A DNA stretch of 64,000 bases from Puniceicoccaceae bacterium (GTDB lineage Bacteria; Verrucomicrobiota; Verrucomicrobiia; Opitutales; Oceanipulchritudinaceae), in NCBI GenBank assembly GCA_040830765.1, contig JBFOMH010000019.1:128001-192000 (forward strand), read 5' to 3'. Made by a program: the position numbers and the translations under genes. Under the pieces are notes generated by a model. It did no database searches, had not been told where the DNA came from, and worked only from the letters and a program-made list of their open reading frames with translations. Numbering within the stretch: the first letter of the stretch is position 1; the number at the start of each line of letters is the position of its first letter. Shown here piece by piece: positions 29,201 to 56,200 of the stretch.

Positions 29201-32200
29201 GTTACCGGTAACAACGATGTCACCGTCCTCCTCGTCCTGCTGGACGGAACGGGAAATGCGGACCGGGCTGATCCAACCGGCATTAATCATGAACTCGCCG
29301 TCTTCACCGGCAAAGATGATATTGTCGCCGTTACCCACCAGGATCCAATCGTTGCCCCCGACATCAAGGTCAGTCGATTCAGCAACATCTATATCCGTAT
29401 TGTCACCGTCATGGATGATGTAGTCGATACGGCCCATATCGCCAAAGACGATATTGTTGCCTTCTCCACCGTCGATGAAGTCGCCGACGAAGGACTGCCC
29501 ATCGATATCCAGTTCGGTGCCGTCGTTGACGCCACCAAAGATGAGGTCATCGCCAAGTCCACCAAAGATGATGTCGTTGCCACCAATCAGCGGATATTGG
29601 GTAAAGATTTCATCCGGGTTCCTGACAGTGCTGTCGAGCTTGTCTCCGGGGCCTCCATTACCGAGGACAACAACCGCCACGACGACCTGGACGCCTGCAT
29701 CCTCGTCGTTGTAGTAGACGACCTGCCCGCGGTCACCGAAGATGATGTCGTCCGCATCGCCGCCAACAATCTCATCGGAACCCTGGCCACCGAAGATGAT
29801 CAACGGGAGCGTCGAGGAATAAGTACCCCACTCGGCATCGCCGGTACCGGAGGCAAAGACATGGTCGTTATCACTGATATCGAGGTAATCGTTCCACGGG
29901 CCCTGGGTGTTGAGGACAAAGAAGCCGTCAGAGACATCGGCTCCACTGTTGTTGTTTTCGGTAGCGTCGAGGTCGATATAAATCCAGTCGTCGCCAAGGC
30001 CAGTGTTGAGGCTGGTGATGGTCCGGATTCCGGCGCGATAATGAGTGCCGTCGATACGAATGGTATCGGCTCCGAAACCGGTCCAGATAGTGATACCCTC
30101 GGCAAAGTCATTGCCCGTTCCCGTGTCAGCCCAGAAGGTGATATTACCCTCGTAAAGGTCGGCCCAGCCAAAGGCATCATCGCCGCCACCGAGGCCGCGG
30201 ATGACGATTTCCGCATCCGTGGGCTCGTCGCCAGACGGCTTGTCCGTGATGACGATATTATCGTTATCCAGCGTACTGGCTTCGCCACTGACCATGAGGA
30301 GATGGCTGCCCGTACCGGCATCGATATTGAGGTCACCATTGATGAAGTGGAGGTGGCCGGTCAGGAAGTCGATATTGCTGTCTTGGGTTTCGTCAGCGGT
30401 TGAGGAAATGTAGATTCGCTCGTCACCGTCTCCGAGGAAGAGGTTTGTTTCGGCAGTTGTGCCACGGATATTGAGGACATCATCACCGGAACCGAAGCCG
30501 ATGTTGAGCTCATCGATGAAGTAGTAGTTAATGCCATCAATCCGGGTCAGGTAGGTTGCAGCATGGGCCTCGACATCATCGTCCGTGCGCTCGTTGGTCG
30601 AATCCGGTGTGTCGCTGATGTCGTCGAGGACATAGAAGCGGGTCGTGAAGACATTTCCGGCGATGTTCTCGATGGTCAGGACGCCGTTCAGGCTGCTGGC
30701 GCGGAATTCCGGCAGGCCCCATTCGTTGATCAGGTCGGCCAGCTTGCGGGCGACCGATGCATGGGTGTCACCGGCTTCGGCGATCACCTTGAAGGTCAGG
30801 ACGCCCGCTGCGCCAGTCGTTGTGGAAACGGCATCCAGACTGGTGGCGGTATCCAATGTAACAGTGATGTCCAGGCTGTAGACGCTCTCAAGGGTCACCT
30901 GCCAGACTTCACCAGCTTCCGGCTGACCGGCCGCCTCGATGGTGGTGGTGGCGGAGAAGAGCGTGCCGTCGGTGCGGCTGATGAGGACCACGTATCCTTC
31001 AACGGCGACGGAGTAGTCATTACCGGTGCCGTTCAGGCCGTTCAGGTCTTCGGCCAGCTCGGCGGCGATGATTTCCAATGTATCATCAGCGAGGACGGTG
31101 TAGCTGAAGGTGTGGGAGGTGATGCCATCGGTGACGGTAATGCTCCAGACTTCGTCGATTGCCGGTGTGCCCAGCAGGGTGACACTGGATTCCGTCGGCG
31201 TGGTGCGGTCAATTTCCACCTTGCTGAGGTCCGCCTCGGTGCTGCCGTAGTAAACCTCGGTTGAGAAGAGGTCGCCGTTGCGGTGGAAGATGACGAGCTT
31301 TCCGCCATCACCGACAGCCGTGAAGATGTCAGGACCGTTTTCATTGATCTCTTCGGCGAAGGCGGCGGCCAGTCCGGCGTAGGAGGCCGTGTCATCAACT
31401 GCCACTGTAAAGGTATGGGTAATGCCACGGATGGTGATTGTCAGGGTCCACATCGAGTTGAGATCGAACGGCTTACCACCGGCAATAAAGTCAACCAAAG
31501 TGGCACGCGGGATGCGGATATCCGTGATGCCTTCACCTTCTGTTCCACCCAGGGTGACTTCTGTTACCAGAGCCTCGTATTCATCGGCGCCGGCGGAATT
31601 CTCCTCGGTAGTGAGACCGCTGGCGTCGAGGTCATGGATGGTCAGGTCCCGGTGCTCGCCCTGGAAGGTGATGATGAAGGTGCGCTCACCGACCTTGCGG
31701 ATGGCGAAGTTGTCCGTGTAGGGCTTCCAAGTTGTACGGGTGGCAAAGTCAAACTCCGGATCAATGTCGATTGTCGAACCATTCGGGTTGAGGATCGGGC
31801 TGATGGCCTTGTAGAGGTCGAGGGCGGAGGCGTTGTAGTCGATCAGGCCGGTGGTGAAGAGCTCAAATTCGCCGAGCTCGTTTTCGATCCGGAAGGTCAG
31901 GGTGAAGGAACCACCGGTTACATTCGGATTAATGGTAATGACCTGGATATTGTTGATACCTTCATTGACGGTCGATCCGTCGCGGATAGTGCTGATCTCG
32001 ACCGCCACGGAGGCGTTTTCATCCGGCACCAGCCCGGTCGTCTCGGTGTTTTCGGCCCACTGGATTTGCTGCTGGTCAATGCCAGCCATGTCGCCGACGA
32101 ATGTGATGGTGTAGGTGACACTGCCGTTAGCGAAGGAGGCAGTGACATCGATATCCTCGGTGGCATAGAGGGCGCGCAGGCGTTCAGCCATTGCTTCAGC

Positions 32201-35200
32201 AGTGATACCGTAATCGATACGGACTTCCGCCCAGCCTTCGCCACGGACGACATCCCCTGCCTCGAGGCGGGTTTCGAAAATGCCACCCTCGCGATCGATG
32301 ACAATCAAGCGCTCGCCAACAGCAATGGCAGTGTAACGGGCATTGGCATCATCGAGTGGATCTCCACTCAGGGTCACGGAGAGTCCTTCACCTTCGTTTA
32401 TCTGTCTGGCGAACTCGATAACCAAGTCCACGAGTGATTCCGCCGTAGTGGCATTCGTGGTGATTTCGTAATACAGCTCACCGATGCGCAGGCGCCACAG
32501 TTCATCCGTCTGCGGGGTACCGACAAAGTCAACCAGTGTGGTTGTGGCGGTCCCACCATCAATGTCGGCGCTGGCCACCGGAGCCAATGAGGTGTAGGCG
32601 GTGAGGAAGCGGCCCGTCGTATCGGCGATAACCAGATTGTCACCGGAGATGGAGGCAATTACACCAACCAGGGCCAGATCGCCCTCGGCGACTGAGAGAT
32701 TGATGAGGTCGGCAAATCCCTGGGCAATGTCAGAAGCACTGTCCGCGGCAGTGACCTCGAGGAAGAACTCAAAGTTGTTGCTGCCAACTGAGAGGTGCAG
32801 GATCCATGTAGAGCCGGTGACCGGAGTGCCGGTAATGGTCACCTCGATGGGCTCAAGACCGGTATTGATGATGCCAGCACCTGCCGGACGGAAGGCTGGC
32901 AGGACTTCACCGTCGGATGTGAAGTCGGCACCTGTCCGGTTGACGATGTAAAGGTTAATGCCATTGGCGAGGGCCGTGAAGGTACCCGTGAGGTCGGAGT
33001 TGATGACCTCAGCAAGGGCGTCGATCAAGTCATCAAAGGCGTCGAAGTCCACAATGGTCTCATCGATTTCGAAGCCGTACTCTACCCCGTCAAGGGTCAC
33101 AATGAAGGTTTCGCCATTCGTGAAGTCTCCAGCGGCGGTGAACTTGCTCGTCGGTGCATCGCCAGTGATGGCTCCAGAGCCGGCGATGGTTCCGTCAGGC
33201 AGTCCGACTTCAAAGGCGACCTCAAGGCTGCGTCCGGCCGGGTCGACGATGTAGAGGGTTTCCCCGTCAGCAATGGCGGTGAATCCGGCCTGCGTATCGA
33301 GGCTGATCAGGGCAGCCAGGGCGCCGGTGATAGTTGCCAGGGAATCCTGGTTGCCGGCAATCTTGTAGCCGTAGGCAAAAGCGCTTTCCCCGGAGATTAT
33401 ACGGATGTACCAGGTCTGGTCGACAAAGCGGGTGCCGTCGAGGTTGACCACGGCAGCGGACGGAGTCGTGGCGTCGATTTCGACGGTGGCCGTCGGGTAG
33501 ACTTCGAAGGCAGCCGTAATGCTGGTCGTACCATCGCGAACGATGACCAGGGAATCACCATCCATGAAGGCAGTGTATTCACCTGTGACACCGGCATTGA
33601 TCTTGGCAGCGAGGGAAGCTCCTATTTCGGCAGCAGTCTCAAGAATGCCATCGACAAGTGCCACTGTGTGGCGGAAGACCGCACCATCAAGAACAACCTC
33701 CCATGCCTCGCCTTCAACCGGTGTGGTCGTCGAGGTGATGATCACTTCTGAGGTTGTATCGTCGTAAACGAGGGAATTGCGCGGGGTAATGCTGCTGGTG
33801 TCCATTCCATCATCCGGCATAAATGTGCCGGTGAGCGGGACGATGAGGACCGAGCTACCTGCGGCAATAGCTGTAAAGGCAACCTCAACACTGGTAGTCA
33901 CGGAAACATCAATTGCGGCGGCACCAGCCGGGCGGCGGGTTGTAGTGGTGGAGTCGAGGATCGGATCATCCGAGGTCACGAGGAGATCGGCACCATCTGC
34001 TTCCACCTTGAATGGCGTTCCAATGACGGCGTTGAGGGCGGCGGCAAGACCGTCAGCAACATCAATCATGCTGGCCGTGGTAGCGAGGAAGGAGGCAGTG
34101 GCCTCGAAGCCGGCCGAACTCAGCGTCACGGTCCAGGTTTCATCGATGGCTGGAGTGTCGCCGAAGACAATCCGGATAGTTGTGCGGGACTGGATTTGCG
34201 TCGCCAGTTTGTCAGCAATGACCGCTGTATCCTCAAGGACATAGCTGTAGGACTCGCCACCAACCGTGATGGTCCAGGTCTCGCCAATGGTCGCTGTGCC
34301 GTCGAGAGTCACCTCGGTCACTGCATCAGAGAGCACCGTGATGGCATAGCTACCGGCGGAACCGGCGGATGGCGTAATGGAGAAGGTGGTCACGAACCCG
34401 TCTGCGGCCAGTTCTTCAATCTCGAGGATGACCTCACCACCAACAAGCTTGGCCGAGGCAATAAAGTTACTGCTGCCGACATTGATCCGGTCCGCCAGGC
34501 CTTCAGCGATTTCGAGGAGCGGAACGTTTTCTCGAACCACGTAATCGTAGGGATCCTCGTTGGAATCGAGGTGGATGGTCCAGGTCTCGCCAGCGGCGGC
34601 AGTTCCACCGAAGGAGATTTGCGTCGACACGATAACGGCCGACACGGTGCCTTCGTTGACAGTGGTCGGGATAGAGTAGACGGCCGAGGAGGCAGAGGTG
34701 CCAATAATGACCAATGTGTCACCACGGGCAGCGGCTTGGTATTCACCACGGGCGTTAATCAGGTCCGCAATACCAGTCGCCACGTCGGCGAGGCTGTCCT
34801 CAGCCATGACGGTGTAGTCGTAGTTGTACGTACCCAAGGCTGTGTCATCCATAGCGACGCGCCAGACCTCGTTCTCGACCGGCGTACCGGTGAGGATCGC
34901 CACGGAACGATCCGCTGCCGTTGTGGAATCCACACCAAGCGGCGCATCCGGAGCGGCCCGGGAAAGACTGAAGGTGACGAGGAAGGCCTCCGCATGGGAA
35001 ATGGTCAGGCTTTCGCCAGTTGCCACAACGGTGAAGCCGTCATCATTATGGACAGCCGTCTCGATTTCGGTAGCAAGGGTGGCCAGGGAAGTGCTGCCGA
35101 TGGTGAAGTCGTAGCTGTTTACAGTCGCCCCGCGGGTCAGGACGAGCGTCCAGATATCGTCAATCACTGCCGGGCCGATGATATCGAGTGCGGCCTGGTT

Positions 35201-38200
35201 GACATTCACTTCAACGTCAAATCCACCAACCGGGGTGATTTCCATCTTCGAATTGAATGTCACCCCACCCTTGTTGATGACAAGAAGGTCGTCGCCGTTG
35301 GCGATGGCCAGGAAGTTGGCCGAAGCAAGGCTGTTGATGACTTCTGCGAGGCCGGCGGCGATATCTGCCAAGGTGGCATCGTCTACATCAACCGTATACT
35401 CGAAGCGGGTAATGATATCCTCGCCGGAAATATTCCGTGTCAGCAGGACGGCCCAGGTATCGCCTTCGTTGACGACCGTAGCCCCGGCATCACTCAGGGT
35501 CATTGCCGTGCTGGAGGAGACCTCCGTCTTGGTGTAGGTGCCGTTGGCGTCAAGATCAGTGATGGAAATGGCGGATGGTGCAGTGATGAAGATCCGGTCA
35601 CCAGAGGCAATGGCCGAGTAGCCAACGAAATTATCACTGATGTAAAATGCGAGGCCGGCGGCCACCGACTCAAGGATTTCGGCGAGGATTTCTGGTGCAG
35701 TTGTGCCGTCGGTCAGAAGGTCATCGGCAGTCACCGTGTAAAGGACGTCGCTTCCGTTGATCTGGAAGTTCCACAGTTCGGCGAGGGAGATAGTGCCATC
35801 CTCACTGGCAATGGTCACCGTGGCTGGATAGGTGCGGCTGATATCGTTATAAACCTGGACATTGATCACCGGGGTGGCATCGAAGGTGGTGCCGACAGTG
35901 CTGAGGATTATCGAATCGCCATCGGCGAGGGCAGCGTAGTCGGCGCTGTCGGCATTGACCAAGGCAGCAATGGCTTCGGCCAGATCGGCCTTGTTCATGC
36001 CATCAGTCACGGTAACCGGGAAGGAGACCGGGCCGGAGGAGCTTGTTTCAAACTCGAGGGTCCAGATTTCACCCGCCACCGGTGTACCCACGAGGTCAAT
36101 GACGTGGGCTTCCGAGTTATCGGTCGCCGATTCCGTACCGCTGGTGGTGGAACCGTCACTGATGGAAATGCTGGCCTCGATGGCTGCAGAATCGAAAGTT
36201 TCGTCCGCACTGGTGACAAAGAGCTGGTTCCCGACGGCCGAGGCCGCGAAGTCAGGACCGTTATTGAGGGTCCAGGCAAACCAGGTGGCCAATGCCTCGG
36301 CAGAGTCAATCAGGATATCCACAGTTCCCATTGTCTGGGTGGTACCGATGACAACCGAGAGCGCGACTGTAGTGGGCTCTGTGGTAACGATATCAACTTC
36401 CCATGTCGAACCGTCAATCGGCACTCCGTTGAAAGTCAGGGTGATGGAGTCCGCGGTGGTATTGATATCCCCGGCCGAACCCGCGCGGGCGATGGTAGCG
36501 GACGTGTCGAGCACTTCACTACCGCTGGAGACGATAGCCAGACCGTTACCAGCGGCATTGACGCTGGCGGCAAATTCACCGGTGGCATTGATCTTGAAGG
36601 CCAGTGCCTCGACAAAGTCGGCAAGTGTCTGGACGATCGTTCCATCGACATCCTCGTCGTAATCAACCTCGACCATGTAGGTTGTGTTAAGGTCGATGGA
36701 CCAGGTCTCACCCGGCTGAGGAAGTCCCGCGAAGGTGGCGACAACGGCATCGGAAGCGGTAACGCTCGCCGTGGCACCGAAGCGGGTGACGACGACAGAC
36801 GGATCCAGGCCGGCGCCCGTAATGGTGATGTCACTACTTGCTGCGGTGGCCGTGATGGCCGGGCCAAGGGAATCGGTGACCTTCCAGGCCAGGGCGGTAG
36901 CGATCTCTTCCAATGTATCAACTTCCACGCTGTCGACTGTTTCCCCGAAGGTGACACTGACAAAGTCGGTATCATTGAGGTTCAGGGTCCAGATATCCAA
37001 GGCGCGCGGAGCGGCTGAAGCGGAGGTATCGAGGCTGATTTCGGCATCGGTGCCGGACACGGAAGTAACCGTTCCACCACTGGATGGAATCTCGATGCTG
37101 AAGCGGGCATTCACATCGGTACCAGTAGTGCTGAAGATGGAGAGGATGTTTCCGGAAAGGACCGTGCTCAGGCCAGCGACACCATCAACGGAGTCAGCCA
37201 GTGCGTTCGCCAGGGACTCGAGGGTATCTCCCTCGGCAACCGTAATGGAGTGCAGGACGGACTCTGTGGTTTCATTCTGGCCCTCGAACCATGTCTTGAG
37301 AATCCAGGTATTACCCGGTTGTGGCACACCGGCAAGAGTCAGGACCACGGCATCCCCGCTGGCCTGCTCGGTAAAGGTGCCTTCAACATCTGTCTGCAGG
37401 GCGATCCAGGAACTGGTGACGAACGGTTCGGCGGCCCGGTCGACGATAAAGAGCGTATTCCCGTCAACAAAGGCAACGAAGGTGGCAAGACCATCGGTGT
37501 TGTTGATCATGTGGGCGAAGATTTCGGCAATGGTGGCGGGGCTGTTCGCATCCACGGTGTAATCCGGATCATCCTCCGTAAACGGATCGTATGTATCACC
37601 GGCCAGAATCTGGAACTCGAAGGATCCTTCAACAGTGGTCAGGCGGATGGCCCAGGTGTCACCAGTGACAACCGTTCCATCAAGGAAGAGCTTGGTTACT
37701 TCTGCCTCGGAACCAGCAGTGACAAGGTTGCCGGCCGGCAGAACGGAGGCTTCCGCAGTAAAGGCCACGTCGTTGTCGAGTGTCAGGACATTGGCCAAGG
37801 CATCTGCCGTAAAGCTATCAAAGACCGGATCCAGATCGCCGAGAAGAAGTAGTTTTTCACCGAGCTTGGCAGCCACCATGTCGAGCGTGTCACCCTCGAG
37901 GACCTTGTAAGATACCGCTGTCACGGCTGCACCCTCCTGCACGCGGAGGAGCCAGGTTTGCCCGGCAACTGCGGTTCCGTTGAGGGTCAGGTCGATTCCG
38001 TAGGTAGTACCGGAGGAAGCACTGGAGGCCGAGCCGTCCGTGGAATTGGTGGTCTGGAGGTTGAAGGAAGCACTGGTGGCACTGGCGATGACCATGCTGT
38101 TACCGGTCGCTGCAGCGGCAAAGTCACCAAGGACATTGATGTCACCGGCGAGGATGGCGACGATTTCAGCAACCGACTGCGCCACCTCGGCGGTATCCGG

Positions 38201-41200
38201 ATCGGCATCATGGTCCACACCGAGGATGGTGTGGCTGACCGTGGTCGAGCCGTCGAGGACGATTGACCAGATATCACCGATTGCGGGTGTACCACCGAGC
38301 GTGAGGGAAATGGAGTTGAAGGTCTGCTGGGTGAAGATGCTGCCCACCGGCTCAACCTCAACACCCGTGACAAAGGCGTTTACGGAGTTTTCAAGGGTCA
38401 GCTCATTGCCGATGGCCTCGGCGCTGAAGGCGGAGATAAAGGTGTCTGCCGAGCTGGTGATGGCCAGTTCGAAGGCAGCGGCAATGGCAGCAAGGTCGTC
38501 ACCTGCCTGGACAGTGTACTCAATGGTCTTGATGGTGGTGAGGACCTGCAGGCGGAGGACCCAGGTCTGACCTTCAATAACCGGACCGAGCAGGGTCAGG
38601 GTAGCGAGTGTTGAGTAACCGGTGGCGTTGTTGTCAGCATAGCCATTGGTGTCCACTCCCGCCTTGACCGATAATGGAGTCGGCAGGTTGCTGGCTATGA
38701 GGATAGTGTCACCGGAGGCACTGGCGGTAAAGCCGGCCAATGCTTCAACTTCGGCTGCCAGCGCGGCCGCGATGGTGGCGATACTGTCCGGTGTTCCGGA
38801 ACCGGCATCAAGGATGGTGTAACGGACAGTGACGGAGTTATTGAGCGTCAGGGTCCAGACATCACCAATGACCGGGTCACCTCCAAGGCGGAAGTTGACC
38901 GCATTGCCGGCCTCCGGCTGAACGGTGATGGTGCCACCGGTTCCAGCGCTGTCGGCGAGCTGGATTTCCAGCGAAATTTCCGGAGCGGCGGCGCCAGCCA
39001 TGACATTGATGACGATAAGGGTGTTGCCGACCGCAATAGCCACCTTGCCCGGTTCATTGGCATTGATCTCAGCCGCGATGAAGGCGGCGATGTCAGCCAA
39101 GGTGGTAGTCGTCGTAACTGGGAAGCTGCTTAAGAAGGTATCGATGGTGAAGTCCCACTGGTCTCCATCAACCGGTGTGCCGGTGAGGACGATGGAGGAA
39201 GTGGCGCCATCAACCAGGTCGAATGTACCTTCCGGTGCCTGGACCGGACTGGTGACACTGAAGGAAACCAGGTAAGCGGCTCCGGATTCGCTGACGATGA
39301 TGAGCACGTCACCCAGTGAGGTGGCGGTAAAGTCATCGTTAGCGTTGATGAGTCCGGCAAGGTATTCGGCGATTTCGGATACTGAGGTAAGAACGCCGCT
39401 GCCGGTATCTTCACCCACCGTGTAGAAGAAGGCCGGGAGATCATCGATAACGACATTCCAGGTATCTCCGTCGATCAGGTTGCCACTGAGACGGACCATG
39501 GTAGTGGTTGCGGTCTCAGAATCGATGGTCGGGTCGGTGATCCGAACCTTGTAAGTACCCGTGGCGGCCTGGACGAAGATTGTCTGGATTTCAGAAATGG
39601 ACGGCATGCCCAGACCGGTCAGGGATTCACCGGTCAAAATTCCGGTGCTGTTGCCGCTTTCACCGCGGTCGTCGAGGTAGAGGACATCTTCATCCGTGTC
39701 GTCACCACCGATAATGACCAACAGGGCGCGGACCGTGTCGAGTTGTGAGTCATCATTGCCATCAACGGATTCCGTGGTGGTGGTGAAGCCAAAGACATTG
39801 GGCAGGGCCTTGCTGCCGACATAGAAGGTGTCTGCTCCGGTCTGGCCGTCGATGATGGTGTGGCCGTCGATGGACTCAACGATAAGGCTGTCATCACCGG
39901 CACCGAGGTAGATGTTGGTCGCGCCGGCGTGGGTCGACTTCACGGTGAAGTTGTCGTTACCGGTTCCAAGATAGATATTCAGGACCTCAAGGTCGCGGTA
40001 CTCGATACCGGCCGGCAAGGTGCGACCAGCGATGACCGTTTCAGGCGCCATGCCCATGCCGGTCAGTTGATCCGCCGTCAGGATAGCGACATTATCGGCC
40101 GGGCTGTTGTTGTGATAGACCGTCATGGTATCGACCTGGTCCGCCTCATCGACACGTGTGTTCAGGTTGACCGGGCGGTAGAAGTACTCATCTCCCGGAC
40201 GCGGTTCATTGAACTCACGGATTTCGATAATGGAGACGGTTCCGACAGGCGTGATCTGGACGGAGGTATCGAATTCCTGGGCCTCGAGATTGACGATGGC
40301 AACCTGGTTGCCAATCGCCACGGCAGTGAAGGTAACCACACCGAAGGCACGGACATGGGCAGCCAGGGCGTTCGCTACATCCTCGATCGTGTCACCTTCC
40401 TGGACCACATAGGAATGGGTGGTGGAGAAGGTTCCATCGTTGAGGAAGATGGACCAGACTTCACCGGCGAAGACCGTGTTGGTCCCGGGAACGGTGTTGG
40501 CATCGGCAAAACCACTCAGGGTCACGACCGAACCAACGCCGTCAACGGAGCTCGAGGCCGCGTTTTCAAGGCTGAAGCTGATACCGGCACGGTTGACAAC
40601 GGTGAGTTTTCCGTCGGCAACGAAGGCGGTGAATTCCTCGTCAGCCGCGACATTGATGCTGGCTGCCAAGGCAGTCAGGATAGCATCCGCTGTTTCCCCA
40701 TCTGCGGCGACATAGGTGTGGACGCTGGTTTGTTCACCGATTCTCAGTAAAGTGGTGTAGAGCTGTGTCAGTCCTCCTGTCAGGGCGACTGGAGTTGCAA
40801 TCTGTCCAGTCTGGGCAGTTGGGATGACAAGGGATTCCGTGATGCGGATATCCGGTTCGAAAGTGGCCTCACCAGAGGACTTGATGGTGTACTCAGGCTC
40901 AGTCGGTTCGGTAAAGTCAGTCCCGTCGGTATTGATGATAATGAGGACCTTGCCCTCGGCATAGGCCGCATGGCTGTCGGCACCGGAATTAATGGCTTCA
41001 GCGAGGGCTTGGGCGATATCGAAGGTCGTGTCGCCGGCCAGGACGGTGTAATTATAGTCCTTGGTTGTCGCCTCACCGGGCAGGGTCACTTGCCAGACAT
41101 CATCCACAACCGGCAATCCGGCAAGGATGGCACTGCGGACCGGTGCATTGGCATCGTCAACGGTAACCGCGTAATTGCCACTGCCATCGTCGGTGCTGGC

Positions 41201-44200: not shown

Positions 44201-47200
44201 TGAGCCGGAGAGCTGAACCATGAAGGTGGCCGGATCATCGAGGGATTCCGTCAGGCTGGAGGCTGCCTCAACAGTAAGATCCGGGGCGGTGAACGCGGTT
44301 CCATCCCGCTTCACGACTACCAGGGAGGCGATCAGGGATGGGTCAGTGGAAAGGATCCTTGAAGAGGCACTGAAGTCGCCGAGACTGCCGTGGGTGCGGA
44401 TTCCTTCAGCAAGGGCTTCAGCCACGTCAGCCAGCGTTTCATCAACCCCAACTACATGGAAGACGTCCGTGCCGTTGACATTGATGGTCCAGGTCTCACC
44501 GACTTGGGCAGTTCCGTTGAGCACGTAGGTGTAGGCGGTGACGTTGCCGTTCTGCGTCGTCGAGGCATTGTCGGCAGCGGCCGGGGAGACCACGATACTA
44601 GTCACGAAACTGTCAGCGGTACGCTTGACGATGTAAAGGGTGCCATCGGCAGTGACCGCATTGAATTCAGACAGGTTGCCATTGCCGTTGATCTGATCTG
44701 CGAACCATTGGGCGATTCCCGGGAAGGTGTTGGTGACACCATCAACGGTCAGTGAGAAGGGCTCTCCGGCAACGGTCAGGTCGAAGGTCTCGCCAACGAC
44801 TATGTCGCCATCCACAAGGACACCGTCCACCAGGGTCTTGCCGAAGGTCACGGTCGTGGTACGGGCGGTGACGGTATCGACATCACCATAACTGCCGATT
44901 TCAAAGGCGTTTCCAAGACGGTTGACGATTACCAGCAGGTTGCCATCGGCTGCTGCGGTGTAGTCGCCCAGCGAGCCATTGCTGTTGAGGAGGGCTGCCA
45001 GGCCAGCTGCGATGGCGCTCGAGCTCAGGGTGCCGCCGCTGGTGTTTTCAAATTCAATTTCCGTTCCCAGGCCATCCTCGACTATTACCAGGCTCCAGAA
45101 TCCACCCGCCACAAGGTCATCGACGATAGTCACGACAGCAGAGGAAGCGGAAGTGGTGTCAACGACCGCGCCGGATGCCGGTGTCACTGACAGGCTGAGA
45201 TTGACGCTGCCACCACGCGTGTTGACAACGATGAGGAGGTCACCTTCCGCACTGGCAACGAGGTTTACGGAATCGTCCGTGGCGTCCGCATTAATGGCCT
45301 CGGCGAGGGCAGTCGCGACGTCGGAAAGGGTCGATGCAACCGTAATGCTATGGCTGACTTCGAGATTACCAATGGTCGCCGTCCAGGTTTCACCGATGGC
45401 CGGTTCACCGACAAGGGTAATGATGCTCGTACGGCCAATCGTTGTTCCGATGGAACCGGAGTCCGCGTCGAAGCTGGCCGTAAAGGCACCATAGGTACGC
45501 TTGATGAGGACAATTGCATCACCATCAGCAACAGCAGTGAAGTCGGCACCAAGGATATTGGAAATGGACTGTGCCAGCGAGGAGGCGATATCCTCGAGGG
45601 TGTCTCCCGCTTCGATGATGTGGGAGACACGGCGCACTTGGCCGTCGAAGTCGAGTTGGATGCCCCAGTCGTCACCGACCACCGGCGATCCGGTCAAAGT
45701 CATGACCGTGGAGGATGCGGTTCCGCTGATGCCGTCGTCCTGGTCGAGGGCGAAAGCGCCTGCGAGGGTGAAACGGTAACCGGCCTGATGGACAACAACC
45801 AACTGGGCGCCATCCGCGATAGCGGCATAATCGGCCGGGGCGAAAGCGTTGATGAGTGCTGCCAGGGTTTCGGCCAACTCGGCCCCGGACTGGGCGGAAT
45901 CACCGGACTGCTGCACCACATGGGTAAGGACATGGGAGAGTCCATCACCAACAAGGGTAATCGTGATCAGCTGTCCGACAGGCAGGTCATCCGACAAGGT
46001 GGAGATACGGATAAACGGATCAACACCGTCGGCAAGGACACCTGCCGGCAGGATGTTGATACCCGGCGTAAAGGCCACATTGTCGCGATTGAGGATGTAG
46101 AGCTTTTCTGCCACTGAGAGGGCACTGTACTGGGCAAGGCCGTCCCCGTTGACCGTAATGGCCAGCTTGGCGACCACATCCTCGAGCGTTTCGAGTGTCT
46201 TCAGGGTATCCGGATTGTTATCGGCATCGACCAGCTGGACAATGTAGGAGACGAGACTGTCGAGATTGCCACCCTCAATTTCCAGGGCGAAGACTTCGCC
46301 CGCAACCGGAATGCCACTGAAGGTGCCGCGCTGGACTGCGCTTTCCATGGCGGTCATATCCGGGGCAAAATCACCTGTCCGGCTGCCAGCGACGGTTGTC
46401 ACGGTAGCCTCGACGGAGAAGGCCAGGCCATCCTCATTGACGATGAGGAGATTCGACCCATCCGCGAGGGAGACAAAGCCGGCATCTGTTGCGTCGAAAG
46501 AGGTGTTGATATGGCGGGCCAGCTTGCGGGCAATGGCATTGCGGGTATCACCCGGGAGGACTGCGACCGCATGGGTGCTGACGGTCGAGCTGGAGCCATC
46601 GTCAACAAGCTCGATAAGCCAGATTTCATCCACTGTCGGGGCCCCTTCAAAGAGTACCGAATAACCGGTCGCTGCCGTATCCAGTCCCCAGATAGTCGAG
46701 GTTTCAGTGAAGGGATCAAAGACCGTGCTGGTCGTGAAAGTGGTGTCACTGTGGACGATGATGAGCTTGGCGCCTTCACTGGTGGCAAGATATGGAGCGG
46801 CAGCGTTGGCATTGATGTCGGCTGCCAGGATGGAAGCGATGACCTCAAGGGATTCCACTGTGTAGCTGAAGGTCGTGCCATCAACGACGACAGACCAGGT
46901 TTCCCCAATACGGGCCGTACCGGTAAATTCGACGCGGGTCACATTCGGGGAAGCGGTCCTCGGAATCATCTCACCATCGGTCTCGAGAATCGGCAGGATC
47001 TGCGAACCAGTGCTGAAGCCGGGGGCGACCTCGGTTTCGATAACCAGCACATTGCCCTGGACGCGGGCGGTGAAGTCACCGAGGACGGCGTTGATCTTCG
47101 CAGCCAGGCCACTTGCCACTTCCGCCAGCGGTACCGTCTCGCGGACAGTGTGGGAGTGGATTGATTCAACGTCCCCACCGAGGGCAGAGTCGTAGTAGCT

Positions 47201-50200
47201 CAGCTCGACGGTCCAGATGTCACCGATGACCGGCGTACCGAAGAGGTCGATGGAACCGGTGTAGGCCGGATCCGGATCCGGGACAACAACGGTGTCGTTC
47301 GGTGAGATTTCGAAAGTGGTTGAATTGGTATTGCCGGCAACATTGTTGATGACCAGGGCCACGCCAACCGAGAGGGCCGAGAGATTGCCAGCCGGATCAG
47401 CCTGGACCAGAAGGGCCAACTGCTCAGCGATGGTTTCGAGTGTGTCGTCCTCAACGATGGTGTAACTGAAGGTCTTGTCCTCGCCGTCAATGTCGAGGTT
47501 GAGGCTCCAGGTGTCCCCTACCCTGACATCGCCACTGAGGATGACCGTACTGGTGTCTTCGGAGGGCCATGGGGCATTGAAGGTGACATTGTAACCCGAG
47601 ACGATCGGCTTGAAATTGGACGGAATCTCATCGAAGAGGCTGAAGGTAAGCAGATCCAGCGGGTCACCGGGTAGCATGGTCACGGTGACATCGGAAGGGC
47701 CGGAGGCATCGGTGAGAGTAAGTTTCCAAGCGCCAGCGAGGTCGGCGGCGTCGTCCGGATCATCGAGGAACTCAAAGGCGACGACGCCCCAGTCGATACC
47801 GAAGAGATAGGAGAAGTCCTGGACGGGTGTTCCGCTGATGGAGTCACTGCCATTGCCACCGGAGCGGACAACTTCCACGCGGAACGGAACAACGGCATTG
47901 CTGTTGCCGGAGTCGACCACACTGATCCGCAACTTGGCGTTGCCCAGGATATCAACGAAGCCTTCAGCAGTGAAGACGTAGTCCTCGATACCGGTATCGT
48001 CATAATCGCCGGTATTCAGCTTTTCAGCCCATTCGCGGACAATCTTGGAGAGGGCCTTGTTGTCTTCGCCCACATCATAGACGATATCCAGATCGGACGT
48101 GGCATCGTCCCCGAAATTGAACATGAGGGTCCATGTTTCCGTATTGGCTGCAAAGCCACCAAGACTGATTGTCGCCTCAAGCCACTCGATGGTGGTATCG
48201 CTATCGCTGTTTACATTCGCGAAACCAACCAGATCCTGATCGGGTGTACCGCTAAAGAGGACATCATCGGATGTGACATTCCCAGTGCCCCTATCGAGAT
48301 CAACCTTGAATGGCTCATCCCCGCCAATGGAAAGGATTTCCTGGGAGATGCCAAGGACGTCGAGGAACCGATCGAGGGCCGGGCCTTCAAGCCACGTAAA
48401 CTCGAATGGGAATTCGTTCATCCGCGGATCGAATCCAGGACGCTCGCCGTAAATGTCATTGAAGTGGAATGACTCACGGTCGGTCATGACCGCATTGCCG
48501 TTGTTGTCGATGCTGATGCCGGTCACCGTTCCATCGGCCTGTGGATCATTGGTTTCCTCCGGCAGGCGGAATGGATCGTTGAGGAAGCGTTCCTCACCAA
48601 CAAGGGCACCGCCGACAATGCTGAGCGGACCACGGATGCCGTTAACCCGTTCCTCGAAGGCCGGGAAGACAAGGGCATCACTGCCATCAATCACGTTGTC
48701 GTCGATAGCCTGTATCCAGACTGTGCGGACAACATCCCAACCGTAGTCGGTGGCATCGGCATCCCCAGCGGGAACGAAGCGCAGTTGCGGAATGATGGCA
48801 GCATCACCAACCGGTGCGACAATGTTCGTCGGGCCAGTGCTGGCGCTACTATTCAGGCCTTCGAGTCCCACGAGGACGCGTGCATCGATGTCCTTGTTCT
48901 GGGATTCGGTGGCATTGCTGATGGTGATGCTTCGGCCTTCGACGAGGACGTCGTACTGGCTCAGGTCAAGCTGGTTGGCCAGCATCATGGCAATGGTGGA
49001 AAGGGTATCACCGAACTTGGTTGTGTATTCAACGCCGGTGCCCCATGCGGCATTCGGATTGGAACTGATGTCGCGCAGTTGCAGGGTCCAGATTTCGCCA
49101 GCAGTAACATCTCCCTTGAGGGCCACCTCGACCGATTCGAAGAAGCTGGTAGTCGGGGTTTGGGAGATGCGGTTGACTTCCACCTCGCCCCATCCAAGGG
49201 CCCGGCGACGGTAGTCGGAATCACTGCCTGTGTCGACATCGACACCAATCTCAAAGGCGGTAAAGAATGGCGTGTAGTCAGCCTCGTTATCCGTCGTGAT
49301 GAGGATTTGTGGCGTTTCCCGCATGGAAATACCGGCGGAAGCCCATGTTGTTCCACTACCCTTATCCATGACTGCCGAGAAGATGACTGTCTGGTCAGGA
49401 TCGAGGACAAGGATGGTCTCGCCATCAGCAACCGCCTTATAGCCGGCCGCTGTGTTACCGTTGATCAGGCTGGCCAGCCCAAGCGCCACATCAGACAGGG
49501 TATCGGTGGCCGTGGGCTCATAGGTAAAGACCGTGTCGCTGCCATCATTGAGGGTCAGGCGCCAGAAGGTGCCCTGGTCAACCGAACCGGAGAGGACAAG
49601 GGTCATGCCCGGATCAAGGTCCGCGGTGTAATCAATGCCCACAGAGGTGTTCAAGATGGTGATCTGGCCCGCAATCGAAGCGGCAACTTCTGTTAGCGTC
49701 TGTGGCGTGGTGGCATTGATGAAGAGACCGACGACGTCGCTCTTGGTGGCATGCAAGGCTGCGAACTCGTCCGAATTAATTCCGCCATCGGAAAGCTTTT
49801 CATAGACCATGTCACGGAAGGCATCGACGCTGATGGTGCTCTCCGGACCAGTCAGGGTCATGAACCACACCTGGCCTCCTGCCGGTGTGCCATCGAACTG
49901 GACAAGGGTGCGGTCTGTGGCAATACGGACTTGCTCGGCAAGGTTTTCGCCAAATGCCTCATCCGCATTGAAGGCCTCATCCGCATTATAGGTCCGGGTT
50001 TCAACCGGCAGGATATTGACGATTACCTCATCCGTCGGGTTCTTCGTAAGGACGATATCCCAGGTATCGCTGATAAGGTCGCCATCGTCATTGAGGAAGC
50101 TTGAATACGGCAGTGGCAGGGTTTCCTCGGAAATCCGGTAGGTGATGTCGTACTTGCTGTCGAAGAGCGGGACTTCACTCCAGTTGTCAAAGCCGGATGT

Positions 50201-53200
50201 CGAGACATAGAAGGCTTGGCTGGTCGGATCGTAGTCGATGATTGTACCGGCCTGCCCGGCGGCCTGCCCTTCTACAACCTGGATACCTCGTCCGGTCAGC
50301 TCGATGGCGGCAAGATTCGTCGGGTGACCCGGGATGGAAATGATCAACTCGTAATCGAGTCCCGGATAGATGCCGGCATACTGGTATTGCGGGTAGAACT
50401 TGTCGTAGGTGACGACGGAGGATACCCGGATGAGGAACGGTTGTGCCGTGGTCGGCGCTGGAATCAGGTACTCGAGGAAGGGATCATATGGGCTGTTGCT
50501 TCCCTCGTCGACCGGGACAGAGGAATCCGGGACATACTTGGAGGAAGCCAGAATCGAGCCGCTGGTCGGATTGATCAACTCAATGACCGGGCTAATGGTG
50601 TAGTTGACCGTTTCGAGAATCGGCACCGTCTTGTAGACCGGGATGAATCCGAAGAGGTAGTAATCGACGACTTCCTCGTAACCGGTCACGACCTGGAAGC
50701 TGCCCTTGACCAGTTTGGTGTTGTCGATATCGAAAACGGCAAAGACATCGCCACCCCGTTCGGCGCGGAAGGCAAATGGGTTGAGGCCATGACCACCACC
50801 GGGCTTGGTCAGGTCCGGCGCACCGGATGAGCCGTCCTGGTCCTCGATGGTGATGGAAGTATCGGTGGCACTGGCCTTGTAAAGTCCGAGTGCATCCACG
50901 ACCTTGGCCAGTTCGTCCGCCACCGTCTTGAAATTGAGTTCACCGAGCTGTGTTCCCTCCTTGAGGCCGCCCGGGACTTCCCAGAAGTATTCCACGTTAT
51001 TGAGGAAGACCGAGAAGACCTGACCGGCGGAGACATCGCGCAGACCAGCATCCCCTTGCAGGTCGAAGGTGACCGAGAAGAAGTGTGGATCGCCGTCTCC
51101 GGGCCACGTTACAGCCGTGGTAAAGTCTTCTGCACCATTGGAGCTGTCCGGATCGACGAAGGCATGGACGCGGACCCATCTCAGGTCACCGAGTTCGACC
51201 AGGTTACCGTCGGAGCGAACGACCTTTACGGAGCCGTCGGCCTGGGCGGTTGCCGAAAGCACACCGCTGAGCCCGGTCGATGCATCATCAAGGGCCGAAT
51301 CGAGGAAGGCCTTGACGGCATCCGCGATACTGGTGGAAGCGCCGCTGGTGGTGCCAACGGTAAAGGACGGATCCGGGGTTTCCCCGTTGTAGGACAGGAT
51401 AAAGGTGTCACCTGCGTAGAGTGGTGTGGCATACCCGGCCACATCCGGATGGATGATCATTTCCCAAGGCAGCTTGACCGTACCGGAAAGCGTGGCGCTG
51501 GCAGAGACATCGACCGGATCGACAAGCGGTGAAGTGACGGTAAATGAGCCTGGGCCGAAGATGAAGAAGGAAGTACTGGTGAGGGAAACCGTGGAGTAAT
51601 CACCCGTTACCAGGGCCTTAAGGCTGGTTGTCACGGAGGAAAGGCTTGGATTGGTGCCACTGACACCACTCTTCAGCGGGACAGGATAGCTCGGGTCCGT
51701 GCCGGAGCTCAGGTCAAGGCTCCAGGTCTGGCCTTCATAGACGACTCCACCTAGTTCAACGAGATAGGCACGGACACTGGTACCCGACTTGACATTGGTG
51801 TCTGTCGTACCGTTCAGATCCTCAGTGAGGGTTGCCGTGAAGGCGGCCAGGCCGGAGTCGCGCCAGATCGTTAGAATCTTGCTTGATGAGTTGTAATCAG
51901 CCGAGTAGATGGTGCCATCGATTGCGGTTTCCAGGGCGCCTGCCTTGGCATCGACTCCGGTGAGACTGTTGGAGGTAATGTTGATATTACCGATGCCGGT
52001 CAGGGCCAGTATCCAGTCGTCGTTATTGTCTGCCTCAAGGCCACTGCTGAGGTTCAATGTCACATAGGCCGTGCCAGTAGCGTCCAGTGTACCCCCTATC
52101 GGCTGGGCATCGACCTCCAGGTACTGGAAGCCGCGGTTGCCGGTCCAGGTAGACTTGAAGACAAAGGTGATCTTGCCGTTAGAGGAAGCCGTGACCGAGG
52201 TGAATGGATCGCTCGGACCGCTGAGAATATTAAACTTGTTGGCAAGGTCCTCGGCCACGCCGATAACTTCATCGGGCAGTCCGGAATTGATGGTATTGAG
52301 CTGCGTCAACAGGCCGACATTACTGGTCTTTTCAATGTTGGCCACCTTGAGTCTCCAGTCCTCTCCCTGATGCGGCGCGCCCCCAAGGTCGACAGTCAGG
52401 GTGGTCCAATTGATTGCGGTATAGGTCGCGCCAACTGGCAGGGAACCGGTCTGACCGGCAGGGGTGCCGGAGATCTTGGCACTGCCATCCGGATTGATGC
52501 CGGTTGTGGTAATGGAGACCGAGACACCGGCAGCAGCCACCGCATTGAAGGTCACCTTGTCGGCTGATCCGCCAACACTGGAAATGATGCCACTAAAGGC
52601 GGCTGCTCCAAGGGCGGTGCGGATGCCTGCCGCAACCTGATCGGGAGATGTGTAACCAGTAAGGATGCTTGCTCCGGTAGGTGTGGAGGTTGAGTTGATG
52701 GTTACCACCCATGTATCGGCGGCATCGATACCAGAGCCATCAATGTCAATCTCGACATTGCCAAAGAGGATATCGGAGCTTCCAGCGGCATTCTTGGCGG
52801 TTGTTGTCCGGCTGACCGTTCCCGCATTATTCACGGTATGGACAAGCCCGTCGACACTGCCGGCCTCACCACGACCCTTAAGGACAAATCCTCCGCCGAG
52901 GTTGCTCACGGTGAGCGTATTTGTGGTGGCATCGACCGAGTAGCCTTCGATGAATCCGTCGGTCTGGGCATCGAGGATTTCCTGGGCCAGCGCGGCGGCG
53001 ACACCGGCTGCTGAGGAATTGGTGCCATCGACAGTGACGATGAAGTCGCGGTAACCCAGACCCAGCTGATAAGTGTCGCCCACCTCGACCTTGTCGGTCA
53101 ACTGGAAGGTAACCGTGCTGTAATACTGGGAACCATCGGAGCTGCCGGATGCTCCTTCGACCTCGTCCGGATTGGCATCCACGTGGAACTTGTAGATGTC

Positions 53201-56200
53201 GTAGGACCAGTCACCGGTACCGACCACCTTGACATACGGTGTGGTGTAGTCGATTCCCGGACGATCACCCGGCTCGCCAGCGAGGTGGATGTTGCCCACG
53301 GCAGGATCGTAGAAAGTGAAGAAGCTCGAACCGTCGGAACCATCGCCATCCAGTTCCTGCCCGGTGGAGGAATCAATGGCGCCGCTCTGGTTGTTACCGA
53401 ATTCATCTTCGAGCACCGGCTCGGGAGCGAAGATAAAGGAATCCTCGGCATGCTGTTCAATGGAGAAGTGCAGTTCGTAGTCGACCCCTTCCGGGACCCC
53501 GTCGATACCGACAGGCCAGGCTGCCGTGACCTCAACGTAGTACGTACCCGGTGTCTCAATGAAGTAGGACAACTGGCTGTCATAGAAGTAGCTGCTACCC
53601 GGATCCAGCGTCCAGCTGAACCAGGAACCTTCCTCGAGGAGGGTCGGCGTGCGGGGCTGATCCGGATCCAGTGGATCGACCAGTTCGTACAGCTTGAGCT
53701 GGCTGGCCCAGAACTGGGAATCGCCGATATCGAATCCGTGGTCGATGTCGAAGAAGACTTCCAAGCCCTTGTATCCAACGGTGCTACCGCTGTTCTCGGA
53801 CTTGTAGGCCTCCACCGATGCCTCGTACATTTCCTCGGTGACCTCGAAGGAATAGAAGTCCGCATTGCCGTCACCCGTGCCAAGAATGGTAGTGTGCGGC
53901 AGGAGATTGGACTTGTAGATATTGGCCACGAAAGTGGTATTCCACTTGGAGGTATCGATATCCTGCGGGATGAAGACAGAGTCATGAACCTCTTCCTGTT
54001 CCTCGCCGATGGAGGTGCCGAAGTCGCCCACAAAAATGACCGCATAGGTGCTGCCATCGGAAACCAGCTCGACCTTGATGAAGATACTGAAGGTCTCGCC
54101 GCCACCGGTCTTGTCGACTTCAATGTATTCGCCGGAAGATGTGGCCGTGTAATCGGTCAAGGCATCAATTTGTCCCGCAAGGGCACTCGCAATTGCGGTA
54201 AAGGAGGTGCCGATGATGGGTGTTGCTGTGCTGACAGAGGTACCCGTTTCATCAACGAGGTGGGCCGTCCAGCGCATGTTCGTGGTCGGTTGCTCAGGCT
54301 GGATTCCGTCGAGGGTCGCATTGGTATCTTCCGGAGAGAGACCGAGGCGGAAGCGGGCGAGGTCAGTCTGGGTCGGGAAGCCATTGCCAAGGAGGACCAA
54401 CTCCGTCGGCTCGATGACATCGGTTGACTCGAGGGACTGGATAACGAGTACGCCCGGAGCGTCGTTGTCGGCAACAATGACGTCGATGGAGTTTGGTACG
54501 GTGACTTCACGGTTTTCACCAACCACATACTTGTACTCGACGGTGTTGAGGTCTTCGCCCGCCGTCACGGAAACATCGCTCTGGGCATCGACCTCGGCCT
54601 CAGCAGGCAGGGTGATGACAAGATCCAGCGTGAAGGCTCCAAAGCGCTCGACCTGGATGCTGGCCGTGTCGTCGTCCAGTTCGGTAGTCCCGCCATCGTT
54701 ATAGGTAACGGAGGCTGAGTAACCGGTGAAGGCGTCAATCTGGGTTTCCAGATCGTCAACGATGTCCTGCAAGGTCTCATCCTCACCGACGGTATAGCTG
54801 GCCTGCACACCCCAACCCATCGCAGTGAGGTCGATGGTGTACGTTTCGCCTTCTTCCGGTGCGCCGTTGAGGCTGACCGATTGGACATCCGGGCTGGCGC
54901 CGAGGATGAGCGTCCAGGCCGACCCCTCGGCATAGGCGAAGGTATCATTGGTGAAGTCGACGTGGGTCAGCTGGTAAACAAGCTTGGCGTAGTGGGTCGG
55001 GCTTTCGAGGGACTCACCCGTGCTGTGGGCCTTGGCGCTGCCTCCGGAATCCGTAACATCGACTTGGGAAGCAGACTCGGCCAGCAGGACATCCAAGCTG
55101 AATGGCGTGCCATCGGTGGTGAAGATGACCACGGATTCGCCAGTTGTGCTTCCATCTATCTCAGCACTGCTCTGGACGGTGCTACCGGTCACGGAGATGC
55201 GGATTGAGAAGTAATCCGTGCCCTTGTTGACCGTAAATTCAGTACCCGTCGGATCGGTTGCGGTAAAGTCGGTCAACTCGTCAATCTTGTCGGACAACTG
55301 GGTTGCGATGTGACTCAAGTTGTTGCCGCTTTCCACGGTGTAGGAAACCTCGATGCTGTTGTCCAAGGTCACGGTCCAGACATCTCCCTTGAGCGGGGTG
55401 CCCTTCAATTCGACATCAGCGGTGGTGAACTTGGTGGCAAAGCGGGTTCCACTGAGGTTGATGACGTTGCTCAGCCCATTGGCAACATCCTGCAGGGTCT
55501 CTGCGGAGGCCGTTGTGCCCTGGCGGGTGTAGCGGAATTCCGTGTCATCGAGGGTGACAATCCAGACCGAGCCGGTAACATCATCAACGGCTGTGTCATC
55601 AAGGGTGACATCCGCCACGTTCCAGGCCTTGACGCTGTCGGCCGTGACGATCTGGAAGCCGAGGGCAGTCTCGCCACTGAAGGTGGCCCGGCCCTCGGAC
55701 TCACCAGAGGCGTAGAAATTGACCTTGAGGAACTTGTTGTTGGAACTGGAAAGTTCGATCGATGTGCCGTCCAATGAGGCGTCGACACCATCCTGCCCGT
55801 CAATCTTGCCGACCAGGGCGGAGGCGATCGTGGCGAGTGTATCATCAACATCAACTGTATGGAAGAAGGCCCGGCCATTGATCGTAACAACCCAGGTTTC
55901 CCCTTCTGCCGGTGTGCCGGCAAGGTCAATATCGACAGCCGTAAACGGTGTCAGCAGGTTGCCCTGGAAGGCAGGACCAGTGATTTCCACCGTATCCGTT
56001 CCGGAATCACCTTCATAATCGGTGTCGATGTTGCCATCGATGATATTGGCGATGCCGTCGACGACGTTGTTCTTTGTCACGCCGAGGAAGAACTCCATGT
56101 CGCTCTCGGATATGCGGTGATTAATCCGGGCGTAGTGTGTCCCCTCCTTGGCGTTGTCATTGACGGCACGGACAACCACTTCCTTGGGCTGATCCCAATC

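Follow-up and report, generated by a model that had tools for sequence, protein, structure and literature searches.

The described systems closest to the subject of this report are the tandem extenders of bacterial RTX adhesins and the outer domains of phage tail proteins, flagellar proteins, and certain colonization factors. The subject itself is an array of 64 diverged modules of ca. 95 residues, predicted to have an alpha/beta fold, that is carried by one giant open frame of a Puniceicoccaceae bacterium (GenBank assembly GCA_040830765.1). It lies in a 64,000-nt stretch of DNA (hereafter “the window”), which is C19:128001-192000 of a 3.99-Mb genome in 40 contigs; C19 denotes contig JBFOMH010000019.1. 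Coordinates are those of the window unless a contig is named, and statements credited to cited papers refer to extracts of those papers.

In the ice-binding adhesin of Marinomonas primoryensis, region II comprises ca. 120 identical immunoglobulin-like (Ig-like) repeats of 104 aa (PMC4083281). The protein described here follows the same logic as such an RTX adhesin, with a tandem array of modules of ca. 100 aa followed by an RTX region, in an acidic protein devoid of cysteine. Whereas the copies in the adhesin are Ig-like and identical, the present modules are predicted to be alpha/beta and are only 25% identical. Like the RTX adhesins, the protein has RTX nonapeptide repeats near its C-terminus; unlike them, it has alpha/beta rather than Ig-like extender units (as modeled), no evident acidic calcium-binding motif in the linkers, and two further domains after the RTX region.

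Phage tail sheath proteins have a conserved core, formed by the two terminal parts of the chain in contact with the tube (PMC9230969), into which a single external domain is inserted. The sheath of phage PhiTE has such an external domain, D3 (PMC11972413), and gp130 of phage Phi92 is also a tail sheath protein (PMC13450770). In the podophage nozzle, or tail tubular protein B, a single domain is inserted in an oligomeric tail protein. GbpA of Vibrio and CbpD of Pseudomonas, both lytic polysaccharide monooxygenase colonization factors, contain one copy of their module 2 per protein and no array; domain 2 of GbpA is similar to the p5 beta-domain of flagellin, which is described as holding a binding domain out from the cell (PMC3257281). 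The modules studied here share the predicted fold of these domains, but they are not accompanied by a sheath core, and 64 copies stand in one chain.

Giant repetitive surface proteins are common and poorly annotated, and the present one is nearly blank in Pfam save for its RTX repeats. As a giant repetitive RTX-type surface protein it is of a known kind; its unnamed extender module appears to be new. A literature search, limited to one library of papers, returned no paper on tandem arrays of this module, and the extracts of a giant-gene survey (bioRxiv 10.1101/2023.11.21.568195) mention neither flagellin nor sheath.

Delineation of the module array

A 95-position hidden Markov model (HMM) was built from one copy with phmmer, followed by four rounds of hmmsearch to convergence. 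It yielded 64 domain hits at a domain E<1e-3 (independent E-values of 6e-27 to 6e-9), all of them in a single open frame on the minus strand, at 30593..55948 (open-frame residues 2685-11136 in window numbering). When the filters were turned off, 71 hits were obtained, the seven additional ones being weak (independent E-values of 0.016-1.0). An independent profile derived from a MAFFT alignment of the units (A1) also returned 64 matches. The repeat was carried by only 1 of the 19,575 six-frame open reading frames (ORFs; ≥80 aa) of the genome, which excludes chance. An earlier reading of the window, made from the sequence alone (hereafter “the sequence-only reading”), had placed ca. 65-70 copies at 30600-55950, all in one polypeptide. 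The coordinates and the single polypeptide were thereby borne out; the count was not, there being 64 firm copies (71 with the weak ones).

The conserved columns of the model were G11, G16, W19 (86%), L23, Y32, V34, D38-T39-L40, I43-A44, L47-A48, and I51-N52, to which F58, A60, G64, L67, I69, and F77 can be added; this consensus reproduces the ca. 95-aa repeat with the motif GExW...YTVxxGDTLxDIAxxLAxxIN that had been proposed for it. Divergence was pronounced. Pairwise identity over match columns averaged 24.8% (range 7.8-45%; 1,949 pairs), neighboring units were no closer to each other (25.6%), and alignment A1 was without any conserved stretch of 7-10 columns. Tandem Repeats Finder, applied to 30000-56500, detected no array of the module period, in agreement with the high DNA-level divergence claimed in the sequence-only reading. 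The linkers between units had a median length of 17 aa (range 8-35; 45 measured), 51% of their residues were Thr, Ala, Ser, or Gly, and no obvious acidic calcium site was found in the 45.

Structure prediction and structural comparison

AlphaFold2 (AF2) was supplied with an alignment of the 61 units of at least 85 aa (3 of the 64 were dropped for length). The resulting one-unit model had a mean predicted local distance difference test score (pLDDT) of 94.8 and a predicted template-modeling score (pTM) of 0.83. In it, three strands (residues 3-8, 18-23, and 28-33) are followed by a 15-residue helix (40-54) and three further strands (58-63, 66-71, and 80-84). So modeled, the module is not an Ig or cadherin sandwich, and the proposal of a mixed alpha/beta, non-Ig unit was upheld. 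A three-unit model was calculated from alignment A3, which contained 15 non-overlapping triples; its pLDDT was 84.2, the fold was kept in each unit, and an extra short strand was predicted in each linker.

The unit model was compared with solved chains; the values in parentheses are the score, the root-mean-square deviation (rmsd), the number of aligned residues, and the sequence identity. Among podophage proteins, matches were found to the nozzle of cyanophage P-SCSP1u (8i4m_A; 11.9, 2.2, 82 aa, 23%), T7 gp12 (6r21_a; 9.5, 2.8, 84 aa, 13%), Kp7 tubular protein B (7y22_Y; 9.3, 3.0, 84 aa, 17%), and HRP29 (8es4_E; 8.5, 2.9, 82 aa, 18%); the shared fold occupies residues 146-231 of P-SCSP1u gp23 and 148-240 of T7 gp12. 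Sheath matches comprised those of the Anabaena phage A-1(L) (8kee_A; 11.0, 1.8, 80 aa, 19%), PhiTE (9cb9_A; 9.7, 2.3, 76 aa, 21%), Sf14 (9c39_H; 9.3, 2.5, 82 aa, 21%), and Mu (9khy_a; 8.8, 2.2, 84 aa, 14%); the external domains of phi92 gp130, Milano, and 7-7-1 are counted with them among the closest known relatives. GbpA (8gul_A; 10.4, 4.2, 95 aa, 13%) and CbpD (7sqx_A; 10.3, 2.0, 89 aa, 8%) were matched through their second module, and the remaining matches were to Pseudomonas aeruginosa FliC (4nx9_A; 9.4, 2.2, 86 aa, 15%), the crAss001 capsid protein (7qof_a; 8.6, 2.7, 89 aa, 9%), and FliD from five species (scores of 5.2-6.7, rmsd of 2.5-3.3, 74-84 aa). The unit thus superposed on the D2/D3-type outer domains of flagellin and FliD. 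A structure search of BFVD gave four hits at E≤1e-3, and its list consisted mostly of sheath, tail tubular B, baseplate, and uncharacterized phage proteins. As modeled, the fold of the module is that of the sheath external domain, the podophage nozzle domain, module 2 of GbpA and CbpD, and the outer domains of flagellin and FliD.

Sequence kinship of the module

When profile A1 was compared with all PDB sequences, tail sheath proteins stood at the top (Phi92 gp130, E=6.8e-5; Sf14, 1.1e-4; PhiTE, 2.8e-4), with 80-96 of 99 positions aligned at sheath residues ca. 81-185. Alignment A4, in which A1 was supplemented with 17 units from six other Verrucomicrobiota genomes, strengthened most of the sheath matches (PhiTE, 7.9e-6; Sf14, 1.1e-5; 7-7-1, 4.8e-4; Milano, 9.8e-4). 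In PHROGs, phrog_165 (“tail sheath”) was matched by 6 of the 61 units, with a best E of 6.4e-5. Similarity to the external, or additional, domain of sheath proteins was thus present in both fold and profile and extended over the whole domain. No counterpart of the tail sheath core was detected: no sheath family appeared in the Pfam or NCBIfam scans, and the sheath matches were confined to residues ca. 80-185. A common origin of the module and the external sheath domain of phage tails is probable, and the likeness to sheath proteins that had been pointed out in the sequence-only reading stands in fold and in sequence.

The companion likeness to flagellin and FliD stood by fold and failed by sequence. 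Flagellin_IN (PF07196; 55 positions, gathering score of 22.7 bits) matched 1 of the 61 units at E=0.064, and the units do not belong to this family. In the genome itself, Flagellin_IN had no match at E≤1e-5; the controls (E. coli, B. subtilis, and T. maritima) were positive, and a search of 151 genomes of the phylum with this family found one FliD. The unit profile was aligned by hhalign with a verrucomicrobial FliD of the same order without significance (E=0.33), and A4 retrieved no flagellin or FliD from the PDB at E≤1. The terminal coiled-coil families of FliD and flagellin were absent from the Pfam scan of 13,587 aa; the protein is not a FliD or a flagellin. The link to flagellin and FliD is therefore one of fold only, and sequence support exists for the sheath only.

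Other families gave little. Phage_nozzle matched 1 of the 61 units (E=0.078) and nozzle proteins appeared in the PDB profile search at E of 0.03-0.1, so that sequence support for the podophage nozzle is weak. Pfam scans of single units also returned Big_12 (1 of 61, E=0.093) and TIG (1 of 61, E=0.0028). Domain 2 of GbpA and CbpD had no sequence match to the module, its structural match being at 8-13% identity. NCBIfam, applied to the whole protein, returned only far-sub-threshold RTX-type and YneA rows.

Nothing but a piecemeal LysM signal was returned by Pfam on the array, and the units could be construed as degenerate LysM domains with peptidoglycan or chitin as their ligand. Such a view draws on a LysM sum E of 1.6e-19 over a 4,500-aa middle piece, on weak matches in 7 of the 61 units (best E=0.013), and on the LysM proteins LytE and Ecp6, which appeared at E of 0.005-0.011 in PDB profile searches. 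The best of these stretches cover only positions 1-17 of the 43-position profile, i.e. the strand-turn-helix motif YxVxxGDTLxxIA that the unit has in common with LysM (PF01476), and no stretch passes alone. Further, the modeled unit has six strands and one helix rather than a beta-alpha-alpha-beta fold, and LysM structures were missing from the 50 best structural matches. Membership in LysM was rejected on the grounds of the partial profile match and the different fold, and we regard this identity of the units as very improbable.

Distribution of the module

Profile A1 matched 2,714 representative proteins (50%-identity clusters) at E≤1e-3, 864 at 1e-10, and 229 at 1e-30, with up to 34 matched stretches in a single representative; the 2,714 clusters fall across several phyla, and the module frequently occurs in them as arrays within giant proteins of the RTX type. 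Six of the 10 top clusters were named, five as “hypothetical protein” and one as “FG-GAP-like repeat-containing protein”, and the sources of the top clusters included Gemmatimonas, Zavarzinia, Thermodesulfobacteriota, and Methylophilaceae. Pfam was run on 20 homologues, and in none of them did a family cover the repeats; the domains that co-occurred with them were RTX (4 of 20), FG-GAP (1 of 20), and cadherin-like (1 of 20). A three-unit piece submitted to the ESM Atlas had unnamed clusters as neighbors, 28 of 30 lacking a common Pfam family. No described stalk family, a match to which would have counted against the sequence-only reading, was matched in the Pfam scans of 61 of the 64 units, the NCBIfam scan of the whole protein, or the Pfam scans of the 20 homologues. 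No Pfam or NCBIfam family covers the module, and both the building block and its arrayed use appear to be undescribed. With a well-defined alpha/beta domain shown to be the main building block, thousands of giant proteins now labeled “hypothetical” can be annotated; in addition, the modules from which adhesin stalks are built would include an extender type other than Ig, and the exchange of domains between the tails of phages and the surface proteins of bacteria could be studied in a concrete case.

Closer to the organism, 30 relatives from its genus, family, and order contained no array; two of them had one weak hit each. In a sample of 401 genomes of the phylum, this one included, at least 10 matched at E≤1e-6 (12 candidates were scored per genome), and in 3 of 10 matching genomes the matches lay inside open frames of 13,724, 19,216, and 11,066 aa. 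By these sequence counts, the array is sporadic in the lineage to which the organism belongs.

Elsewhere in the Verrucomicrobiota, six ORFs (loci L086-L091; 611-1,040 aa) each contain a single matching stretch; Big_7 was found in three of the six, and nothing in the rest. These single-stretch ORFs may be simpler relatives or evolutionary intermediates.

Proposed role of the array

We consider it rather likely that the array is the central extender, or long spacer, of a giant, acidic, cysteine-free extracellular protein. In this proposal, 64 independently folding modules of ca. 85 aa, joined by linkers rich in Thr, Ala, Ser, and Gly, would form the extender; the spacer would be on the order of 0.2 μm long if each unit contributed ca. 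3 nm (our estimate). Like the Ig-like extender repeats of RTX adhesins, it would keep the N-terminal part at a distance from the RTX region and the two candidate lectin-like domains at the C-terminus. Recombination and misfolding between units would be held in check by the low identity of neighbors (ca. 25%). The spacer role is suggested by the position of the array, which precedes both the RTX region and the candidate lectin-like domains, by conservation that is limited to the core, and by a divergence that is typical of long tandem-domain proteins. An extracellular, adhesin-like context is indicated by the RTX repeats, the absence of cysteine, the net acidity, and the pairing of the module with RTX, FG-GAP, and cadherin-like domains in its homologues. 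A precedent for a projecting role is offered by domain 2 of GbpA, through its likeness to the flagellin domain mentioned above (PMC3257281). Use as a stalk, put forward in the sequence-only reading, is a reasonable supposition; an origin from polymeric appendages, proposed there too, is a possible one.

Several observations weigh against this proposal or the kinship behind it. The three-unit model had a pTM of only 0.55, and its linker residues 89-94 fell below a pLDDT of 50; a rigid rod is therefore not predicted. The AF2 alignments consisted of paralogous repeats of this single protein only. All comparators carry the domain as an insertion, which points to termini that lie side by side and to less rise per unit than Ig-type extenders provide. 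Regarding kinship, de novo designs of the Top7 type scored 1e-4 to 1e-2 with the same profiles, over ca. 36-46 positions; because such designs cannot be homologues and yet match, E-values of this size are not by themselves proof of common descent. For the sheath the case is stronger: the alignments take in the entire domain, several sheath families are matched at one and the same location, and the best structural matches agree with it. The sequence link to the sheath may be rated as moderate. With respect to export, searches with the type I secretion models TIGR01843 and TIGR01842 gave no match above the curated cut-off in the draft genome (96.9% complete), where only generic ABC and adaptor matches were found, and no type I secretion ABC or HlyD gene lies beside the giant gene. 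Finally, the additional domains of phage sheaths have been proposed to aid adhesion (PMC9230969).

That last proposal also lends weight to a different role, in which the diverged modules would be weak, differently tuned binders of polysaccharides or cell surfaces and the array a polyspecific, multivalent “Velcro”. Domains 2-3 of GbpA bind the bacterial surface (PMC3257281), the surface positions of the units are highly variable, and the sulfatases, GH10, and GH94 encoded nearby point to a polysaccharide-degrading lifestyle. Nearly all of the conserved columns, in turn, are glycines or hydrophobic core positions, and neither a polar patch nor a ligand-site motif is conserved among the 64 units. 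Conservation confined to the core is in keeping with a structural role and not with a ligand site common to the units. In addition, no carbohydrate-binding family was matched by any of the 61 units scanned with Pfam, and separate candidate lectin-like domains are present at the C-terminus. A binding surface of this kind is possible and, in our view, distinctly less probable than a spacer.

A further reading, to which we give a similarly low probability, takes into account the insertion of the domain in its comparators. A decoration domain derived from, or shared with, phages may have been amplified by bacteria into a widespread class of extenders, whose tandem copies would constitute a zig-zag tether that may be extensible or laterally binding. 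If this were true, the mechanics would differ from those of known adhesin stalks, and the array would not be a stiff Ig-like rod.

The units might instead associate laterally, with each other or with neighboring molecules, as the outer domains of flagellin and the external domains of sheaths do in their polymers, and build a coat, sheath, or fiber bundle rather than a single tether. The fold is common to domains packed on the exterior of helical polymers, and three giant genes probably follow one another on the same strand, across contigs C7 and C19 (a link that is not proven). No sign of self-association was found, no complex having been modeled. When the tandem model was compared with solved chains, none superposed on more than one unit (aligned length ≤88 of 285 residues), and lateral association is judged to be improbable.

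Architecture of the giant protein

The giant gene occupies 23237..64000 (-) of the window, where it encodes 13,587 aa and is open at its 5' end. Its array is not seamless; an interleaved first third is followed by runs of 24, 19, 5, and 3 units, which are separated by inserts of 235, 45, and 245 aa. In the proximal third (47870..55948, -; residues 2685-5377), 13 HMM-detected modules alternate with unassigned segments of 51-306 aa, and five of the seven weak, degenerate copies fall here. Pfam found nothing above threshold in the three longest interleaved segments (PKD at E=0.019 only). An uninterrupted run of 24 modules follows at 40220..47563 (-; residues 5480-7927).

The 235-aa insert (39515..40219, -), which splits the array, is related by BLASTP to residues 1650-1975 and 11156-11200. 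Four matches to these array-flanking segments were at 29-41% identity, the best being at 41% (E=9e-15); the insert represents a second recurring module type that matches no Pfam family. Beyond it, at 33893..39514 (-), the HMM found 19 hits, i.e. 18 full modules and a half-module (34178..34327, -; residues 9892-9941) that covers HMM positions 4-54 only. This half-module is joined directly onto the next full module and looks like an internal deletion within the array. A run of 5 modules (32243..33757, -), a unique 245-aa insert with no Pfam family match (31508..32242, -), and the last 3 modules (30593..31507, -) complete the array.

Distal to the array, ca. 1,900 aa (24701..30592, -) form an RTX-type region of calcium-binding nonapeptides. 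It was matched by PF00353 at E=2.2e-38 over 8 stretches, with sub-pieces at 6.4e-40 (residues 12201-13100) and 7.6e-13. Scans of the five largest inserts and the flanks with Pfam returned only RTX and one sub-threshold PKD match. The protein ends in two domains of ca. 190 aa each (23531..24700, -) that are related to one another (internal BLASTP, E=4e-11). The C-terminal 487 aa had no sequence match in the PDB, and no Pfam hit was obtained for the two domains; their ESM Atlas neighbors carry PF06439, a lectin-like jelly roll, at scores of 0.90-0.91. The domains may thus be concanavalin- or lectin-like, which we take as a lead only.

Neighboring genes

Two minus-strand open frames nearly fill the window. 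The second begins 227 nt past the stop of the array gene and occupies 3..23009 (-), where 7,669 aa are encoded with the 3' end open; it continues to C19:124577, for a total frame of 8,813 aa. Its product has an N-terminal LEPRLLLS, long RTX blocks, five ELWxxDGT repeats (TIGR04534, E=6e-63), and internalin-like leucine-rich repeats, and it contains none of the 95-aa modules. Against the LEPR-XLL model NF012209, it scored 16.8 bits (cut-off of 17).

Downstream of the giant genes, C19:109253-124208 (locus L080) encodes three sulfatases, GH10, GH94, and an AraC-type regulator, in addition to a radical SAM/SPASM protein, RadC, and FKBP. Judged by these annotations, L080 is a polysaccharide-degradation neighborhood without secretion genes.

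Assembly, host, and other giant frames

The frame of the array gene remains open up to the edge of C19 (position 207222), such that it spans 56 kb without a stop and encodes at least 18,661 aa, and its N-terminus is not on C19. These 18,661 aa contain no cysteine and are strongly acidic (D+E 14.6% vs. K+R 4.0%). The host was assigned to Verrucomicrobiota, order Opitutales, near Oceanipulchritudo, on the basis of an RpoB fragment that was 95% identical to that of an Oceanipulchritudo sp. metagenome-assembled genome; its other best matches were in Opitutales/Puniceicoccaceae.

At the edge of contig C7 lies a frame of 2,649 aa (C7:2-7948, -) with a LEPRLLLS motif, read by eye, behind a likely TTG start; the ca. 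170-aa repeat at its end also opens the giant frame of C19. The DNA ends of C7 and C19 did not overlap exactly; the match, of 92% identity over 121 nt, was to a paralogous copy. The C7 frame is probably the missing N-terminus of the giant protein, with the assembly broken in near-identical repeats. The giant gene is among the longest bacterial open frames, at 18,661 aa or more and probably about 21,000 aa, the length with the C7 frame joined. A further frame, of 5,302 aa, lies directly upstream of the 2,649-aa frame on the same strand of C7; joining C7 and C19, a step that is not proven, would probably place three giant genes in a row on one strand.

That the contig ends inside the gene, amid near-identical repeats of ca. 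170 aa, could raise the suspicion of an assembly artefact, or of an open frame that does not correspond to a real gene. Against this stand the 56 kb without a stop, the 64 confidently folding domains, and the 2,714 homologous clusters elsewhere. Sequencing runs speak to the same point. The stretch 30600-50599 was complete in DNA run X1 (labeled as a mollusc metagenome; possibly the source), and in DNA run X3, from a second study, it was present at ≥99% identity in 13 small contigs, one of which, of low depth, had a 1-nt insertion at 48688. In an oligo-dT metatranscriptome library (X2), seven contigs (151-250 nt) agreed with the stretch in every letter and covered 8 of 30 bins; these pieces may be DNA carry-over and are not proof of transcription. 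Run X4 had only two 18-nt pieces of the stretch, which is no evidence. An artefact is, in sum, hardly credible.

The genome contains 14 stop-to-stop frames of at least 2,000 aa (18,661, 15,026, 8,813, 7,980, 6,958, and 5,944 aa, and smaller ones), on contigs C5, C6, C7, C8, C17, C19, C22, and C33. Together they amount to ca. 92,600 codons, or roughly 7% of the 3.99-Mb genome. One of them is a LEPR-XLL frame of 5,944 aa at C8:1-17832 (-), which is cut off by the contig edge amid ELWRTDGG repeats; repeats of the same kind stand at the edge of C33, where a frame of 3,846 aa opens (C33:1-11538, +). To judge from these ends, the two frames are probably one gene of ca. 9,800 aa that was split by the assembly.

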